A stretch of DNA of 55,411 nt, counting the filler, from Dimargaris cristalligena (lineage: Eukaryota), in the NCBI GenBank assembly GCA_003614675.1. It is 2 parts of 2 records of this genome, joined end to end, with 100 filler letters (N's around TTAATTAATTAA, not from the genome) between each part and the next. Parts side by side here need not be neighbours in the genome. Positions count along the whole stretch, not along the records: positions 1 to 27,660 come from ML002514.1; 1 more part is not named here. One strand, written 5' to 3'. The notes under the pieces were generated by a model that did not search any database, had not been told where the DNA came from, and saw nothing but the letters and a program-made list of their open reading frames with translations. The stretch's first letter is position 1, and each line of letters starts with the position of its first letter. The position numbers and the translations under genes are program-made. Shown piece after piece: positions 1 through 45,015 of the stretch.

Positions 1-1291
1 ATCTATCTTTTCAAATAAAGTTCAGTTTTCAAGGATTTGATTTCAGTTCTTTACAGTAGTATCCTCTCCTAAGGACCTCCTTTTAGAGTTGCCCCTATAG
101 ATATATAACTAGACCCTATTAGGAGAAGTTAGATTCCTTAGCTTATTTTTACCCCTGTAGTTTACCCTAATAAACTCTATATACACTCACTCCCCTTAAA
201 CTAACTAGTGAGTGTGCCCACTGCACATCCCTTGCATATACCTGCACATAGCCTTTATTAGTTATTATCATGCCCCATACCTGATGCTAGTAGCCCACTT
301 AGCCAGGCCTAGGCCCCACCTACTGTTGGAAGCCTATCCTCAAGACTCTTGATGGGCTAAGAGCAGTTAACCCAGGCAATACCTTATTTTATTGACATTA
401 TAGAAGTATGTCACTATTATCCCATCACTTTAAATTACTGCCCCCCCCCCCTCACAGACCTGTTTTCAAAAATGCATTCATTCAGTTTGCATCTATAAAT
501 TGCCATTGAAGTGGAATGCAATAGTAGGGAATGCCATATAATATAGCAAACTAAGGTTCTTCCAAGGGAATTAAAATAATATTTCCATGGGAACGTCCTG
601 TTATTAGGTTATGGTGCTAACATGTAATTTAATGTAATGCCTATACTGGCCAGACCTACTATAAAAATACCCAGATTCCGAATGCCATCTTCCAGGTGGA
701 AGTGCCTATGATAATATATTGATTAATAATGTTCCAAATTTGGAGCTTATCCGTTTCAACTCCAAGTAAAACTGTGTCTGACTGTGGAAGATATGCATCT
801 TTTGATTAATATGTGATTTGATTAGGGTAGATTTTGAAACTCTCTTACTTCAACCTCCCTTAGGTCAACTAAGGTGGTGGGGCCGCGCGGTGTAGAGACC
901 GTATTGAAAGACAGCTGACCCTGAAAGAATTCACACTGCTATTTTTTTAAAACTATTAATCGCCCCTTTGGGTCAGTAACTCCGTTTAACTATTCAAGGA
1001 AACTGTATATATTTAAAATAGGTCAACTGATAGTGGAGGCAACCTGGTGGAAGCAATCCTATCACACTTCGAATTTTCTATTGATTACCATACTAAGCCA
1101 CACTTACAGTCCGTAATTAACTGGATAGTAGCTACTTAGATGGTGAGAATTGGTGTATTAGCATAGATTTAAGGCTTAATTTGATTTTTCTGCGCAACTG
1201 GGGGTTGAGTATTTCGATAGCCATTGGCAATGCATTCAATGTAGCTATGGTCCATATACAGGCCCACTCAATTAGGGGATCATTGGCGTAA

Positions 1292-1298
1292 TATAAAT
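1292..1298 (+). promoter_or_regulatory. TATA box upstream of the small CaaX ORF
   Basis: TATAAAT about 160 nt upstream of ATG 1454, followed by a C/T-rich leader with no intervening ATG. Confidence 0.55.
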
Positions 1299-1453
1299 AG
1301 GCTAAACTCCCCCCGCCTATCCTTTCCAACCAACCCAATTCGCACTCGAATCAACGAACCTTCTCCATCCAGCCACCTGCAGCATCTTCGCCAACTGTCG
1401 AGTTAAAGTATCGCCGTATTACCAGCACACATTCGCCACCTCCTTCAGACAAT

Positions 1454-1636
1454 ATGGCATCCACCACCTTCGCCCACACCTCTCTCGTTCCCAACCCTGT
1501 GATTGACCAGCCTCTTTCTATACTCGTTGATTTGACTATTAGCACCGCTGCCAACGATGCAGCCACCGATAACCAACCCATGGTTCTTCCCTTAGCCATG
1601 AAAGAGACCGAATTCGCAACCTGTATTACCATGTAG
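1454..1636 (+). CDS. Small 60-aa protein ending in a CaaX box (CITM); candidate prenylated lipopeptide/pheromone precursor
   Basis: MASTTFAHTS...PMVLPLAMKETEFATCITM*. Single Cys at -4, good start context (aatATGG), upstream TATA, many C-ending codons, CpGs retained unlike nearby DNA. Confidence 0.55.
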   Translation: MASTTFAHTSLVPNPVIDQPLSILVDLTISTAANDAATDNQPMVLPLAMKETEFATCITM

Positions 1637-3868
1637 AGGTTTTGGGGTCTCAGACATCATTGCCGTTGCCCTACTCTCAAATTGGGGACTTTATTCTCTT
1701 AAAGGCATACCCTTGGCTTTGGTGTACCCCTTTTTAAATACCTTTTTCTAATTTGGCTGCTAGCCAATTCTTATATTTATACTATCTGATATTTTCCATT
1801 CTCAGTGAATTACCATGTCTATACCTCCCTGGGGTAGCAGGTTTTCCTAAAAAATAACTGTTCAGATCCAATATTGGGCGATATACACAGTGTTTATCAA
1901 GAGAGGTAATGGAAATCGATCCCCGTCCGGGGGCTATATACACGGGCTAGGATATCCCTATTGCCTAATTATATCAGGTGCGCTTTAAAAACGAATAGCT
2001 ATCCCAGGCCGGAATCCAGGTTTAACCCTTTTCGTTGTTATACTAGCTGACTAATCATACACCCGGGGTATGTCTGTGATAACTGTGGTGTCATATTAAT
2101 CCTTACTGACAGTTTTGTAAATAAATAAGGAAACACTGCAACCGCACGACGAACCCCCGGCCCGATCATCCCCCCCGTCACGTGACAGAACCCCGGCCGG
2201 GCCCCCAACGAGCGAAGCAAGCGCGATAAGCGCCGGAGCCGAAAACCTTAATCGAACCAAAATTATAAATTAAACGGATTGACCCGGGATTCGGGAAAAA
2301 GGTGTGTTTCAATAAAATAATTAACTTTATTACTAAACTCTACAATTGCCCTAATTAAAGAATCGTTCGAGTTCCCCTATCCCGCCTCGGATCCGAGCAC
2401 GACTGGTAATACCCACGGTCCGCCGCGACCCCGTTACAACACCACCGTATGACCACTGTCGGTGTATTTAGAGAGGTGCGGACTGTGACCCAATCTCCCC
2501 TCCCCAAAATAAAACTCCCGGAAAGTAGCATTGGCGGATATTTTGTTCTCGAGGGTACAGTGATAGTGACAGTCCATAATCAGCAGGAATAGCCACGTCC
2601 CTGTAATTCAATGGCTAAATTTTTAACCCACCCCATCATCAAAATCGCGCCAATGAGGGCCCTGATGAACTAATCGCCTACCTCAATTGAATATCAAACG
2701 AGGCCAAAACTACCCGAACCACGGAACAGCGGTCCAATTAGATGTCAAGGGTGGTTTTAGCCATTTGGAGCATAAGACCCTATCCTGTATATTTTGCTTA
2801 CGTACTTTGTGGTGTCGCATTGAGATTACCGTTGACTGGCTGCGTTGCCCTAAAATTTTCCACCTATCTTCATTAACGCGCGCTTTTTTCCCAATATATA
2901 AATAGTGGATAATCCCCCTTCGCCCAATTCACCCTTCCGTTTACTACTATTTTACAAAATTTCATCTAAACCGTACCTTGTTTTTTGACTTATTTACCTA
3001 ATACGGCCATGATTAGCCATTCTTCTACTTGTTTTATTATCTACCGTATATTTGCACAATTGTTGTGGGTGTTCGATGATTTACTATAACTTAGCAAGAA
3101 GCCGTGAACTTAATTGTAAGTGGTCTAGCTGAGCAGCTACTAATGATATGGATCTCCAATTTCGATGCCGACCATTCTAGCGCTCGGTTGTTTGAAACCA
3201 TACCGGAACTTTACGGTAAATCAGTCCAACTCTATATCATCTACTCACAATGGGCTGGCTTTCATTGCTAATACAGGAACGGAAAATTGGATTTATGGTT
3301 CTAACATGTATCCGGTAGACAGTTATTTTGAAATAAATTAAGGTAAGTTGGGTCTAAGAATAAATTGGTGATACTAATTAAACAAAACACACCAACTGGA
3401 AACGAATAAGTACCCATTGGATACTTAGGTAATCATTGATCATTAAATAGAGAACAGGAAGTGACATGGCGACATGAAATAAATGTATGAATAGCGATGA
3501 AGGTAAGTAATATGACCGCCCGACCCATCGAGACTTAATCTGGCGTGTGCCGGGGAATCAGATGGTAGCGGAAAAGATTTGCATGCTAGAGGTAAAATGG
3601 TACAGTGTCGGAGTTATCTCCGGCAAAAAAAACCTAATGCACTGACATGATTCAAAAACGCTAAGGGTAGTATAATGATAAAAACTGACTGAACTTTACA
3701 GAGATCTTCATAAAGTCCGGTTAATTTTGGGGCATGGATACTCACAGCGCGGGGAATGCTGATGAGTTTCTAATGCTAAACCTTCGACGAGATAAGGTAG
3801 GTCTAAGCCGAAGACAGGTATTCGCAAAAGCCCCGCACCGAGATGGGGGGGGGGGTTCTTTCCAACCA

Positions 3869-6259
3869 TTAAGCACCATTCGGTGGTGTGGGCGGGTGGT
3901 AGGCCTCCGCTGAAATGGCTACCGAGTCATCAACGAAAGTGCCAATCGAGTCGAACTTGGAAGGGCCGTTTAAATTCGAAATGCTGCGGCGATTCAGCTG
4001 AACAACGGGCTCCGAGCCCGACAGGACGGCCTTCTCATTGCTCAAGGACGAGTAGCTCGCGGTGCGCGGCTGCAGGTGGATCGGGCCACTGGGATGACCA
4101 TTGGAGCTCTGGGTGGGGCTAACGTCGACGGTCCCATCCATGTGGCGGGCATCCGGGTAGACGGCGGAATCGTTGGGCGAAAACTGGCTATCGGCGGGAG
4201 CGAGGAGCTGCTTCTTAGGGCTCAACTTAGTCTTGGCGAAGACGCGCGGGCCGGCCCCGTGGTGAACGAGGCGCCACAGACCAAGGTAGGACAGGGCGAA
4301 GAGTAGTACGAAGAGGGCAATCAAAAACACAATGTTGACCAGAATGCCGAAGCTACCCAGGCTGAGGTTTGCCAAGGCCGGGTCACCGATATTTTGGCCT
4401 TGGGAGGAATAGCCCGTGAACTGGTTGTGGGCCAGGGCTGAAAAACCGTATTTGATGGGACTGATCCACTGAATCCAGGCCAACCAGGCGGGCGCATTGC
4501 CCGTATTGACGAACAAACCACCGAAGATCATCAGGGGCAGAATCACCACGGGCACCAGTGCGAGGGTAACTTCGAGGTTCTGAATGGAACAGGCCATGAA
4601 GGTACCGAAACCGTTACCGCAGAGGGCTACACAAATGGCGACGGCGACGTAGATGAAGAATTTACCCGCATCGGCCTGCAAACCGAACATCCAGTAGGTG
4701 ATGGTGGCGAAGATAAAGGGGGACAAAATCACGAAGGGTAGTTCCACGGTATTTTTTGCTAAGAAGTAGGAAGGGAGGCTGTAAAGGCCGTTGCCGTGCT
4801 CGCGGCGGAATACGTCACGCTCTGCGGCGAAGGTGGTGATAACGGGCATGGCGTTGGCAAAGAATTGGTTCACGGCCACGAAGAACAGAGCACCGGTCAT
4901 GTCCTGGATCTGGGCGGCCAGGTTATCCTTGCCCGGGATATTGAGGTAGATGAGACCAATGAACACACCAAAGAAGAGGGCTTGGAAGAATTTGGCCTGG
5001 ATCACCATCTTGTTACGCCAGCCGTTGCGGGCGGCGCGTTTGAGCAGGTGGTTGTACTGCACGGAAAATGAGCTCACCTGCTTGAACATACCGGGGGTGA
5101 TGGCGCGGGTAAGCGGATGCCGGGCCACGTATTCGTAATAGGCCGCCTCGGGGGAGCGGCGCCAGAACTCGTAGATGTGTTCCATGCGATTGCGCTCGAG
5201 CTGGTTGGCCTCGGTTTTGTCACCCATGGTCAAATTTTCCGGGTCGAAGCGGTAGAGCACGCTCATGAAGAAGAAATCGGCAGGGTTGGTGTAGGTGGGG
5301 CACGGGTAACCGGCGCGGGTGAAATAGGCCACAGCGTTCTCGGCCTCGCCCATGTACACGGTGCGACCGTCCTGCAGAATCATCACATCGTCGAAGGTAT
5401 GGAAGATCTCCGAAGAGGGCTGGTGCATGACGGTAACGACGGTACGACCGGACCGGGCCAGCTGGCGCAGAATGAAGGTGACGGTGGCGGCGGTGTAGGC
5501 GTCGAGACCCGAGGTGGGTTCGTCCAAGAACAGGACGGAAGGATTAGTGACCAGCTCCATGGCAATGGCGCACCGCTTGCGCTCACCTCCGGAAACACCC
5601 TTCACATGGGCCGAACCGATGACAGTGTCACGGGCCTTTTCCAGCTCCAGAAGAGCAATGACTTCATTCACCCGCTGTTTCCGCTGTTCGGGGTTCAGGT
5701 CGGGACAGCGTAAAATAGCACACATGGTGATGGCTTCCGCCACGGTCATGGTGGGCAAGATCACGTCGTCTTGGAACACATAGCCGGAAATAGTGCGAAT
5801 GGCCTGACCGGTGACATTGCGGCCGTTGATGAGCAGCTGGCCGTCCACGCGACCCATCTTGACGGAGCCAGCCAGAATATTGAGCAGGGAGGTCTTGCCA
5901 GACCCACTGGGACCCAGAATGGCGGTCACACGACCCGGCTGGAATGCGCCGGTGAGACCCTTTAGAATGACCTTCTCGTGCTGGCGGTCGGTGCGCTTAA
6001 AAAGCCCGGAACGCTGGGGACTGGTAGAGGGGTGGGGGTCGTCCGCCTTCTCGGACGGTCCAGCGTCGTCGCCCTCGAGGGCAACGGGTTCATACTTGGT
6101 ATCGGTCCCCGGGGCGGGGCCCTTGATGGTGACGGAGTAGGTTAGGTTGTTGAATACAATTTGGATGGGCTCAACTTTAGACTGGTCGGAGCTAAGGAAA
6201 TTGTCCATATTGATGGACGTATCAAAGGCGCTAGCGGCCTGGGAGGCAGCGGTGGACAT
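3869..6259 (-). CDS. ABCG (White/Scarlet-like) half-transporter, NBD-TMD, 796 aa, intronless
   Basis: Walker A GPSGSGKT, signature VSGGE, Walker B LFLDEPTSGLD, H-loop MHQP, NPADF motif, C-terminal ABC2-type membrane domain with about 6 hydrophobic helices. Confidence 0.95.
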   Translation of the reverse strand: MSTAASQAASAFDTSINMDNFLSSDQSKVEPIQIVFNNLTYSVTIKGPAPGTDTKYEPVALEGDDAGPSEKADDPHPSTSPQRSGLFKRTDRQHEKVILKGLTGAFQPGRVTAILGPSGSGKTSLLNILAGSVKMGRVDGQLLINGRNVTGQAIRTISGYVFQDDVILPTMTVAEAITMCAILRCPDLNPEQRKQRVNEVIALLELEKARDTVIGSAHVKGVSGGERKRCAIAMELVTNPSVLFLDEPTSGLDAYTAATVTFILRQLARSGRTVVTVMHQPSSEIFHTFDDVMILQDGRTVYMGEAENAVAYFTRAGYPCPTYTNPADFFFMSVLYRFDPENLTMGDKTEANQLERNRMEHIYEFWRRSPEAAYYEYVARHPLTRAITPGMFKQVSSFSVQYNHLLKRAARNGWRNKMVIQAKFFQALFFGVFIGLIYLNIPGKDNLAAQIQDMTGALFFVAVNQFFANAMPVITTFAAERDVFRREHGNGLYSLPSYFLAKNTVELPFVILSPFIFATITYWMFGLQADAGKFFIYVAVAICVALCGNGFGTFMACSIQNLEVTLALVPVVILPLMIFGGLFVNTGNAPAWLAWIQWISPIKYGFSALAHNQFTGYSSQGQNIGDPALANLSLGSFGILVNIVFLIALFVLLFALSYLGLWRLVHHGAGPRVFAKTKLSPKKQLLAPADSQFSPNDSAVYPDARHMDGTVDVSPTQSSNGHPSGPIHLQPRTASYSSLSNEKAVLSGSEPVVQLNRRSISNLNGPSKFDSIGTFVDDSVAISAEAYHPPTPPNGA

Positions 6260-13830: not shown

Positions 13831-14775
13831 TTAGGCTTTGTTTAACTGGTTGGGCTGGGCGGGAGGTAGGGTATTGGGGCGGGCGACCTGGTTCTTCGAA
13901 GCATTGTCCCGGATGCCATTAGGGCTCTGCTGATTAATTTGGCCCGGAGGAGAAGTGGCGGCCCGGGCAATCTGCTTCTTTGAAACCTTACCTTGCGTAT
14001 TGGTATTGCCTTGCTGATTAGGCAGAGTCGGCGGAGCAGTCATGGCGCGAGTGAACTGCTTCTTTGAACCGATGCCTTGGACATTGGTATTGCCCTGCCG
14101 ATCAGGTTTGACCAGGGGAGCAGTCATGGCGCGGGTGTGTTTATTCTTAACCCCGTTGTTGGGACCATTGGTATTGGCCTGCTGGTTAGGCTGGGCCGTA
14201 GGAAAAGTGCCGGAGCGGGTGTGGGGCTTAGGTGAACCATTACCTTGAACATCGGCATTGGCCTTCTGACTAAGCTGGACGGGAGGAGCAGTGCCGGGAC
14301 TGGTGGTCTGCTTCTTGAAACTGTTGCCTTGAACATTGGTATTGCCCTGCTGATTAAAATGGCCCGGAGGGGAAGTAGATGGGCGGGTTTGGGGCTTAGG
14401 CGAACCGTTACCCTGAACACCGGCATTGGCCTTCTGACTAAGCTGGACGGAAGGAGCAGTGCCGGGACTGGTGGTCTGCTTCTTGAAACTGCTGCCTTGA
14501 ACATTGGTATTGCCCTGCTGATTAAAATGACCTGGAGGAGAAGTAGCTGAGCGGGTGTGGGGCTTAGGCGAACCATTGCCTTGAACACTGGCCTTATTGT
14601 TGCCGGCAAAGTTGTTCTTCTGATTGAGCTGGCCCGCATTAGCAGGGTTGAAGGGGGCAGGGGGGTTGGACACTTGAGGGGTGGTATTTAAAGCACTAAC
14701 TGGGCTGATGGTCATAGTGGTGAAGGCGCAGAAGGCACCCAGAATCAAAATCTTCTTGGTCGAGATGAAAGCCAT
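13831..14775 (-). CDS. Secreted Q/N/P/T-rich tandem-repeat protein, 314 aa; candidate effector or cell-surface protein
   Basis: N-terminal signal peptide (MAFISTKKILILGAFCAFTTMTISPVSA), nine ~28-aa repeats, minus-strand TATAAATA at 14931-14938. Confidence 0.85.
   Translation of the reverse strand: MAFISTKKILILGAFCAFTTMTISPVSALNTTPQVSNPPAPFNPANAGQLNQKNNFAGNNKASVQGNGSPKPHTRSATSPPGHFNQQGNTNVQGSSFKKQTTSPGTAPSVQLSQKANAGVQGNGSPKPQTRPSTSPPGHFNQQGNTNVQGNSFKKQTTSPGTAPPVQLSQKANADVQGNGSPKPHTRSGTFPTAQPNQQANTNGPNNGVKNKHTRAMTAPLVKPDRQGNTNVQGIGSKKQFTRAMTAPPTLPNQQGNTNTQGKVSKKQIARAATSPPGQINQQSPNGIRDNASKNQVARPNTLPPAQPNQLNKA
13834..14583 (-). repeat. Intragenic tandem repeat: 84-bp (28-aa) unit with a near-identical 168-bp higher-order dimer
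   Basis: GGGGCTTAGG recurs at 14223, 14391 and 14559 (168-bp spacing); protein units QGNGSPKPHTRSATSPPGHFNQQGNTNV and QGSSFKKQTTSPGTAPSVQLSQKANAGV. Confidence 0.9.
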
Positions 14776-16727
14776 AGCGAGATGAATGTGGTGGAATGAG
14801 AAATTGAAGGAGGTAAATAGCCCGACTTTTTAGTAGGAATGTTAATGCGTGTAAGAGGTGATGAGAGTGGAAAATGGGGAGTGTAATGGTAATGATGATA
14901 ATGTTTTTTTAGAGAAGGCAGTCGCCTCTCTATTTATATTGAAATTAGCCGAGCCTTCGACATGATGCCATGGCAATGTTGGGCCATGATTTTGGGCTGC
15001 TTGGTGCATTCTTGGGCCAAGACCGGTTAATCATTAGACGGTCAAGGGAAGCTCCCGGTCTTCACAAGCATATAACTTGCCGATCTCAATGACTTAATGT
15101 CCGACGGGCCCACTTTCGACACTTTCGACACTCTAGCCCTTCTCCTCGTCCATTTCCCCCATCTATAGCTCATACTATGAACATGAAGCTTCTTTGTTCA
15201 GTTACTGCGCTCAGCGATAGACGTGCAGTTAGAAAGGGCATCCTTGCAAATGGACGGATGCTACTCCTATTCAGCCCACCATCCCCTCTAGCCTATACAC
15301 CGTTGCTATCCGGGGGTAGAATAGTGGGCCACCAGACCCCTTTGTCGATACTTAAATTACTTCGCCTTAGTGTATGGGCATAATTCCGATTCCCCATTTT
15401 ACAAAGATTATAGATGCGATGGTAAATCAGCTATTTTATGGTATCGGCACTCGATAATGCCTTGAGAGGATCATACAGCGATTTACGGCTTTCACGTAAA
15501 AGTAGACAATTGGGCTCACTGACGGAAGGGACTTTATATGAGAGGCTAAGTGGGCCATCTAAGATGTGGTACCAAGGCCAACTGGGCTTGGTGAACCCTG
15601 GCTATTTGAAAATACTGCTGCATCCCTTTAGGGCGCTGTGGTATATCGCAGATATCGCCAGCCCATACCTTGGCCAATATGTGTCTAATAATAGGTTCAT
15701 TTTTCTTTTCAATGTACATCAATTCATGAATGAAGGGGACAATCTAGTATAGACGATTCAGAGCACAGCAATGCTAATCCCAGACGGCCAGGCTCTGGTG
15801 AATGGCCCCAGCTAGTGTAGCAGGGCCTAATATGCGGGCGGCTAGCTATCCTATAGGCACCAGAGCTCTATTATTCATACCACCTCTTCAGCACATAAAA
15901 CTCTAAAGCCCGTATTGATATCCCAGTAAACTGTCCAAGGTAAAGGTTTCCATATGCCGAGCTAACTGCACTCTGGGAATTGTCAGAGGCTCTGCCAATA
16001 TGAATATTCAATTATTAGTGGATATAAGAGACTGAATACATGTATTATGTATAAAGGCCCGAAACCACTCCCACATCCCAGCGGTACTACCCTTAGTATC
16101 TCAGAAGGTACTCTGAATGTATACTCGGAAATAGTAGTACCAGCTCAAACTAGACTGCGCTAGGCAGTCCATTCAGACTCAGCTGCTAATATCTTGACTT
16201 AAAGTAAGTGTTTACGGCCTGTATAGTGGGAGGGGCGGAGGGAGGGCAACCGTTAGATATGGCCAATCACCTAGGGCCCGATTCAACATCTGACCCCACC
16301 GGCAAGAACCCACCACCGGACTCCTATACTTCCATTGCTTTCGTCGAGATGGCAGTAAATAGTCGCAGCCCTAGATAACCAGCACTAGACACACGGGGTA
16401 TAAAGCGGAGAAATAAGCGTGGTACACCGGTCTTCGTATGTCACCTTGCAATAAAAGGTGCATACTGAACGTTCCCTACTGGGTATTGCCATTTGCATAG
16501 CCCTACTTCACATGTGTATGGGGGCAGGGTAAGTTAAAAACTGTTAAATTAAAAAACCATCAATATTTTTGTATTTGAAGGTGTTTTATCTAATCCCCGG
16601 ACCATCTAGATAGTACTGTAGTAACAATACTATGGTCCAACCACTTATGTTTTTCAGTCGGATACCACCCTATCAATTACTGTTAAGGGTGAGTACATCC
16701 GAGTGTAAATAACTAAGGAATAGTAAT

Positions 16728-27660: not shown

Positions 27661-27760
27661 NNNNNNNNNNNNNNNNNNNNNNNNNNNNNNNNNNNNNNNN
27701 NNNNTTAATTAATTAANNNNNNNNNNNNNNNNNNNNNNNNNNNNNNNNNNNNNNNNNNNN
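27661..27760. other. Artificial assembly/scaffolding spacer
   Basis: 44 N + TTAATTAATTAA (27705-27716; stop codons in all six frames) + 44 N = 100 nt. Confidence 0.95.
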
Positions 27761-44048: not shown

Positions 44049-45015
44049 GTTCAAGCCCTGTATGTAACTAACGGACCCTCAAGGTGACCCAATCCCCACC
44101 CCTATTGTTGAACGGACAATACACTGGTTGAGTGGTTTGGGCCTGCGTTTGAACAGGCGCTAGGCGGAAGGGGGGGACTAGCAAAACGACCAGCCAATGC
44201 CCATTTTCCCCTAGTAATGCGACTATGTTTTATTCACAGGTTATATCTCGACCACCGTGGCCTCTTTGTGTACGATTAGCCGCCGAATAGCCAAAATTCA
44301 CGTCCCCGATCCAGTCCGGGCCACCACCGCCGAGTCCGATTACCGCTTTTTATTAGAGGGTTTGGAAAGAGCCCGGTGGCTCATTATCGACTGCGATATC
44401 TCCCCCTCCCAACTACCGCTGGCCCACTCTCTTGAAGACAGCGCCTAGGCGTTCGAGGGCGCTAAACTACCGAATTAGGCAGGGGTAGATCATCTCAATG
44501 GGGCACCAGGGTAATTGATCAGCCGGGCCCGTAATCTTGGCTAGTTTCCGTATCACCACTGCCCGGGACCTAATGAGCAGATAGGTTCTCTCGTTTGGCG
44601 ATTTTTTACTACGAGGGCAGCACCCCCCTTGCCTTTCCTACTGCGTCGACCTAATTATCCGCCGCTGCATTCGGTCTTATCTAACGGACCAGAGTAGTCG
44701 GTCTGTATCCTCCCCCCCTTACCCTATACCATCGCCATTACAGATGGCAGACCTGGCAATTGCGGTAAAAACTGGTTACTAATCCACAGCTAATATATAC
44801 TTATATTTATATATAAATTTACCACTTCGCCCCTCTCCAACAATTGTATCTCACAGCACTGTCCTATTAGCTCTTTTTAGACTGTACTCGTGTGCACCGC
44901 CTACCCTATTTCCCCTCTTTATTTTTCGTGTACAGTAGACGACATTGTCTCGCCCTGAATCGAACCTAATAATTGTCGCTTAACGCCCGTGACTCTAACA
45001 GCCCAATCATCCAAA

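Follow-up and report, generated by a model that had tools for sequence, protein, structure and literature searches.

A 60-codon open reading frame ending in CITM, probably an unannotated small gene, in a Dimargaritales-like fungus

The window analyzed here, a stretch of 55,411 nucleotides from the Dimargaris cristalligena assembly GCA_003614675.1, consists of two contigs joined by an artificial linker, which places the 60-codon open reading frame (ORF) under study 1.45 kb from a contig end. The window contains eukaryotic genes, as seen by a Pfam scan of its ORF translations: besides an ABCG half-transporter, an acyl-CoA oxidase, a WW/FF protein, a RING protein, CobW, AMMECR1, F-actin capping beta, and a myosin head were recognized. 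The following features are referred to throughout, with positions counted along the window.

1292..1299, + strand: TATA box TATAAATA, read directly from the sequence
1300..1453, + strand: ATG-free, C-rich leader of 154 nt (C 0.37, G 0.12), presumed 5′UTR
1309..1317, + strand: C-run CCCCCCGCC, 10 nt after the TATA box, presumed to act as an initiator-region core-promoter element
1454..1636, + strand: putative coding sequence of 60 codons plus a TAG stop (1634–1636), translated as MASTTF...EFATCITM
1622..1633, + strand: codons of the CaaX box Cys57-Ile-Thr-Met, read directly from the sequence
3869..6259, − strand: ABCG half-transporter ORF, 796 aa, uninterrupted (PF00005 and PF01061)
27661–27760: artificial linker, two runs of 44 N around TTAATTAATTAA, with stops in all frames

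The closest named relatives of the ABCG protein belong to Tieghemiomyces, Dimargaris verticillata, and Dispira (62–68% identity), and the next best to Basidiobolus (52–55%), then to Blastocladiomycota and Coemansia, with 50–55% identity in Basidiobolus and Blastocladiomycota. Hence, the host is a Dimargaritales-like member of the Kickxellomycotina, and the first-pass annotation of this DNA was right in placing it outside the Dikarya. The protein on record that is 100% identical to the ABCG ORF (P0001) is only 520 aa long, 65% of the 796 aa; as the ORF is uninterrupted, the deposited gene model may be truncated.

Five DNA runs from two studies contain this stretch. Copy number along the first part of the window was read from contig depth in four DNA runs. 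Positions 1–440 are a very high-copy repeat (summed contig depth 1e4–3e5, against ~80–200 in the flanking single-copy DNA), which shows numerous variant contigs and joints in each of the four runs, sits at the contig end, and is probably the cause of the assembly break. Positions 2107–2440 are a mid-copy, C-rich repeat with variant contigs, at 3–15 times the depth of its flanks. Between them, 469–2106 is at single-copy depth, and 441–2181 forms one variant-free contig in run X1. No variants were found within the 60-codon ORF in the contigs of the four DNA runs, and no second copy of it at 85% likeness or more was found in the four corresponding assemblies or in the window. Coding-like codon scores were also observed in several frames of the repeat 2107–2440, and the two coding-like windows inside it have no Pfam match.

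The elements from which the first reading of the locus had been built, namely a TATA box, an ATG-free leader, a 60-codon ORF, and a lone Cys within a CaaX box, are all present at the positions listed above. The ATG at 1454 is the first one and stands in the context gacaatATGGC, with an A at −3 and a G at +4, and no canonical intron was found in 1291–1800. The C-terminus of the peptide reads ...KETEFATCITM, and its single Cys is that of the CaaX box. Arg is absent from it, Lys occurs once, six residues are acidic, and 21 of the 60 are Thr, Ala, or Ser (T9, A8, S4). The Kyte-Doolittle means of its N-terminal 11-residue windows are 0.1–0.6, indicating that the N-terminus has no signal-peptide-like hydrophobic core. 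A single-sequence AF2 model of the peptide (mean pLDDT of 62, with the C-terminal 30 residues at low confidence) gives weak support to a C-terminal tail that might be accessible. A 93-codon antisense ORF (1351–1632, − strand) overlaps the 60-codon ORF, but with a negative codon score (−0.17) and no Pfam match, it was taken as a shadow frame.

Codon log-odds were trained on long genes of the window, only 6–9 in number, with intergenic trinucleotides as the background. On this measure, the reading frame of the ORF scored 0.32–0.34 per codon, whereas its two other frames scored −0.66 and −0.39. This score ranks it 4th among the 94 ATG-ORFs of 40–120 aa found outside the long ORFs, in a list where ranks 1 and 2 are exons of the acyl-CoA oxidase and F-actin capping beta genes by Pfam. 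Its frame contrast of 0.85 compares with a median of 0.83 for 60-codon windows of real genes, and was reached by one of 5000 open frames simulated with the composition of the ORF and by none of 5000 simulated with the composition of 1301–1636 (first-order Markov in both cases). When leader and ORF were each divided into thirds, the leader gave contrasts of 0.22, −0.19, and 0.13, and the ORF gave 0.87, 0.68, and 1.0, which means that the coding signal switches on at the ATG. The third codon positions of the ORF (C 0.43, A 0.13) also resemble those of the window genes (C 0.42, A 0.12). The coding character of the ORF is beyond chance, and 1454..1636 is probably a true small gene.

Base composition shifts sharply at 1291, and the TATA box and C-run that follow belong to a signature that recurs in the window. 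The pattern TATAWAW-N4-16-CCCC gave 16 overlapping matches in the whole window, which we grouped into nine distinct sites, against 1.07 ± 1.09 matches in 200 block shuffles (~15-fold over the shuffles, counted as matches). With the sites at 1292 and 2895 set aside, four of the seven others are found upstream of a long ORF on the same strand, at a distance of at most 200 nt, where such upstream zones make up 7.3% of both strands (binomial P of 8e-4). The four ORFs are those of AMMECR1, an HSP20-like protein, and F-actin capping beta, and the one at 44959. The signature is thus present beyond chance and is associated with gene starts. The ATG-free leader is weak evidence, since it is G-poor. Only near-matches to Ste12 or HMG sites were found in the promoter by eye.

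A second TATA-plus-C-run site, whose sequence resembles that at 1292, lies on the same strand at 2895. Downstream of it come four short introns of canonical type (3116–3180, 3216–3276 or 3216–3318, 3343–3450, and 3503–3561) of the form GTAAGT/GTAAAT ... CTAAT-like branch ... YAG. No spliced ORF longer than 45 aa was found after this site, and Rfam returned nothing in 1–4000 at E up to 1. The segment 2895–3561 (+ strand) may be a spliced non-coding RNA gene, and as this promoter apparently drives a spliced RNA with no ORF above 45 aa, promoters of this type are no guarantee of a protein.

The proteins predicted for the assembly itself do not include the 60-aa ORF, although they do include a truncated product of the neighboring gene. 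The earlier suspicion that annotation pipelines would miss a gene this small looks real, as the ORF is absent from a collection of 5.8 billion proteins that does hold the neighbor's product. A word-index search of these 5.8 billion proteins gave no candidate relative of the peptide, with the reservation that protein-level searches are limited by the rare annotation of small ORFs. The phmmer search of 1.84 billion representatives gave one match only (P0121, E of 4e-4), a 759-aa protein with a recurring SSPFAHVATIDGGMIDNP motif; it was judged a repeat-boosted chance match and rejected as a homolog. In the ESM Atlas, the best score was 0.86 and the recognition 1058, both under the useful thresholds, and a metagenome scan produced 347 pattern matches, none of which was confirmed by tblastn. 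No Pfam family was found for the 60 aa (E up to 0.01) or for the 111-aa extended translation (E up to 1).

Kim et al. 2023 (PMC10320760) screened the complete CXXX set in yeast, and the values that they report for CITM were used to evaluate the C-terminus, with the yeast enzyme as a proxy for that of the host. Ydj1-CITM had an enrichment factor of 1.276, against 0.125 and 0.198 for the non-substrates CITP and CITR, and its Ydj1 HM score was 4.85, with a cut-off of 3 (PMC10320760). With the Ras reporter, the HM score of CITM was 9.78, the top of the CITx row; CIVM, outside this row, had 18.2 (PMC10320760). According to the farnesyltransferase (FTase) rule given there, only D, E, K, or R at a2 and K, P, or R at X are restrictive, and CITM passes; in the Ras-reporter data, Met at X is a positive pattern, and Thr at a2 is less prevalent among the top matches (PMC10320760). 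Judged by analogy with these yeast reporters, CITM is farnesylation-competent, and the Ras-reporter score hints, indirectly, that aaX trimming and carboxyl-methylation might follow. The first-pass annotation had cautioned that Thr is less canonical at a2; given the enrichment factor (1.28 when rounded) and the two HM scores, this caveat carries little weight for farnesylation and can largely be set aside. Rce1-like peptidases are reported in all the fungi studied in PMC8778642.

When small ORFs with CaaX endings were scanned for, the window was found to contain 13 ending in C-x-x-x among 445 ATG-ORFs of 20–150 aa, and 8 among 265 of 30–100 aa; 10 of the 13 are permissive under the yeast FTase rule applied by hand. 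The CaaX ending of the ORF is at chance level and not distinguishable from a chance ending. This agrees with the counts in the preprint of Srikant et al., which gives 500–2000 short CaaX ORFs per yeast genome and 100–700 after an Asn-site filter. Annotated genomes of Leotiomycetes hold 2–12 small CAAX/CPAX proteins each, and the motif alone is insufficient according to the authors (PMC10569646).

The reading we prefer, with moderate confidence, is that of a real, unannotated, single-exon, lineage-restricted orphan gene, with a 60-aa product that would be farnesylated at Cys57 and would have no pheromone role. RNA polymerase II would start shortly after the TATA box and C-run (1292–1317), as the signature common to other window genes suggests, giving a leader of ~130–150 nt. 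Because this leader has no AUG, scanning ribosomes would start at the first AUG (1454), which is in a strong context, and the codon signal points to translation from there. The product would be an acidic 60-aa peptide, without a signal-peptide-like hydrophobic N-terminus and with its only Cys in the C-terminal CITM. The yeast reporter data suggest that a cytosolic farnesyltransferase would then lipidate Cys57, and the yeast Ras-reporter score that the ITM tripeptide would be trimmed and the new C-terminus methylated. The end product might be a small farnesylated peptide, either membrane-tethered or exported.

Several known systems resemble this arrangement in part. With S. cerevisiae MFA1/MFA2 and the a-factor-like genes of ascomycetes, including the putative a-factor of Leotiomycetes, the ORF shares a precursor length below 100 aa (here 60 aa), the lack of an apparent signal peptide, an N-terminal part rich in Ser, Thr, and Ala, a lone Cys placed in a CaaX box that yeast FTase accepts, and a candidate Asn-X site 5–20 residues before the Cys. 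It differs from them by the absence of sequence similarity and of a Gly-Tyr motif and by its single copy. Ascomycete a-factor precursors are ~23–36 aa long, so that the ORF is longer. Having Thr at a2, it departs from both patterns, CAAX and CPAX, described in PMC10569646. With the basidiomycete Mfa/Phb precursors, it has in common the length class, acidic residues before the presumed mature peptide, and the CaaX end. Basidiomycete lipopeptide pheromone precursors are ~35–75 aa long, and their genes adjoin Ste3-type receptor genes, usually in several copies. Here, in contrast to the Mfa/Phb loci, there is no second copy, and no match to Ste3 (PF02076) was found among 30 ORF translations (7 + 23) of the 55-kb window.

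G-protein gamma subunits and two small yeast ORFs, YDL022C-A (CSII) and YIL134C-A (CAPY), also resemble the candidate in being small with a prenylatable C-terminus. Neither the 60 aa (at E up to 0.01) nor the 111-aa translation (at E up to 1) has a Pfam match to G-gamma or to any other family, and the candidate is similar in sequence to nothing in the collections searched. The motifs and prenylation of the two yeast ORFs are given in Table 3 of PMC10320760. As small CaaX proteins that are not pheromones exist, a small CaaX gene need not encode a pheromone. Outside the Dikarya, a parallel is that of the Glomeromycotina, another phylum than that of this fungus, for which a Ste3 receptor and a Ste6 exporter are reported but not a ligand gene (PMC3834313). 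The present ORF is of the type that one would look for as such a ligand. A full-text literature search found no peptide pheromone gene reported for zygomycete lineages, those known being from Dikarya, and the term 'pheromone' is absent from the main text of two genomics papers on these lineages (PMC9866270, PMC6784888).

The original interpretation was that of an a-factor-type lipopeptide precursor; worked out for this ORF, it would be farnesylated at Cys57, trimmed, and methylated, then cut at its N-terminal side to a peptide of 10–17 residues, which an ABC transporter would export to a Ste3-type receptor of a mate or host. We consider this improbable. The gene is probably real, with its frame contrast and the onset of the coding signal at the ATG, its length is in range, and its single Cys lies in an FTase-competent CaaX box with Met at X; these points are compatible with a pheromone, but short CaaX ORFs are abundant by chance, as the 13 of 445 in the window illustrate. 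Likewise, N40-Q41, 17 residues before Cys57, would pass the filter for N-X cleavage that Srikant et al. applied, but this filter is weak, as 125,711 of 284,073 chance candidates (~44%) pass it in the same preprint. The ORF is single copy, where true pheromones are commonly multi-copy according to Srikant et al., and the 30 window translations lack a PF02076 match. The presumed mature region, MKETEFATC, is charged. Nothing specific to the ORF favors a pheromone beyond features common to chance ORFs. Many known pheromones are rich in aromatic, Gly, and Pro residues, and MKETEFATC is not. What keeps the pheromone reading open is that reports describe conservation of the Ste3 family across fungi (10.1101/546531, PMC10406608) and that the Glomeromycotina possess Ste3 and Ste6 orthologs with no known peptide ligand gene (PMC3834313); a review also describes the mating genetics of Zoopagomycota as not well understood (PMC10386755). 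Of the original interpretation, the missed small gene and the non-Dikarya host are supported; the secreted lipopeptide pheromone at its core is not.

The ABCG gene next to the ORF was also considered as support for pheromone export and discounted, being a half-transporter that is convergent with the ORF, 2.2 kb off, and conserved across fungi. We take this adjacent transporter to be of the ABCG and not of the Ste6 (ABCB) type, which counts against the pheromone reading. Ste6 (ABCB) is the exporter of a-factor.

The other alternatives question the gene itself. The locus might give rise to a promoter-proximal RNA that is non-coding or only incidentally translated, with a fortuitous ORF and CaaX box, which we regard as unlikely. 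In its favor, the locus has a good promoter signature, a spliced RNA with no meaningful ORF seems to come from the sister promoter at 2895, and no homolog of the peptide was found in the collections searched. The C-rich, G-poor composition lengthens open frames, so that 9–14% of simulated 60-codon frames are open, and the 93-codon antisense ORF overlaps the 60-codon one. Against such an RNA stands the frame-specific codon signal, which begins at the ATG, is as strong as in real genes, and was equaled in no more than 1 of 5000 simulations of composition-matched open frames; nor was any Rfam family found in 1–4000. It is rather less probable that the ORF arose by chance in untranscribed intergenic DNA. 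Its location near a contig end and between the repeats 1–440 and 2107–2440 would suit such an origin, as would the lack of annotation and of a detected homolog, but neither the coding signal nor the promoter signature is at a level that chance would readily give, and the sharp change of composition at 1291 also speaks against it.

Lastly, the ORF could be the last exon of a larger gene, with TATAAATAG as the 3′ end of an intron and a frame open from 1301, a proposal that we find very unlikely. Indeed, 111 codons are open from 1301, directly after the TAG, and AATAG/G resembles the intron acceptor of the F-actin-capping-beta gene. However, codons 1301–1453 carry no frame-specific coding signal, the 111-aa translation has no Pfam match, and no coding-like window was found on the + strand of 1–1300. 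Moreover, introns here are ~60–180 nt long, where the upstream exon would have to lie either within the repeat or at a distance of over 850 nt. Set beside these alternatives, the orphan small gene with a putatively prenylated product remains the reading that we prefer.

Should the product be merely an orphan small prenylated protein, its value would be modest, as a case of genome annotation missing short genes; the combination of the TATA-plus-C-run signature with the frame-contrast test can recover such genes. It would be a long shot to see in it a farnesylated peptide signal that is genetically encoded, the first from a fungus outside the Dikarya (Zoopagomycota, Dimargaritales-like), and the missing ligand class for Ste3-type receptors. 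If this were true, the peptide might help mates to recognize each other or let a haustorial mycoparasite communicate with its host, and a system restricted to Dikarya would be extended to an early-diverging phylum. With a real coding signal, a farnesylation-competent CaaX box, and a ligand gene lacking elsewhere, the ORF is a concrete ligand candidate.

Two further observations concern the window at large. On the − strand, 13928–14599 contains seven copies of an 84-nt (28-codon) tandem repeat, 63–71% identical to the reference copy, inside a 332-codon ORF without a Pfam match and with a TATA box upstream at 14938. Throughout the window, genes have more C than G on their sense strand, the sign of the GC skew being opposite to the coding strand.
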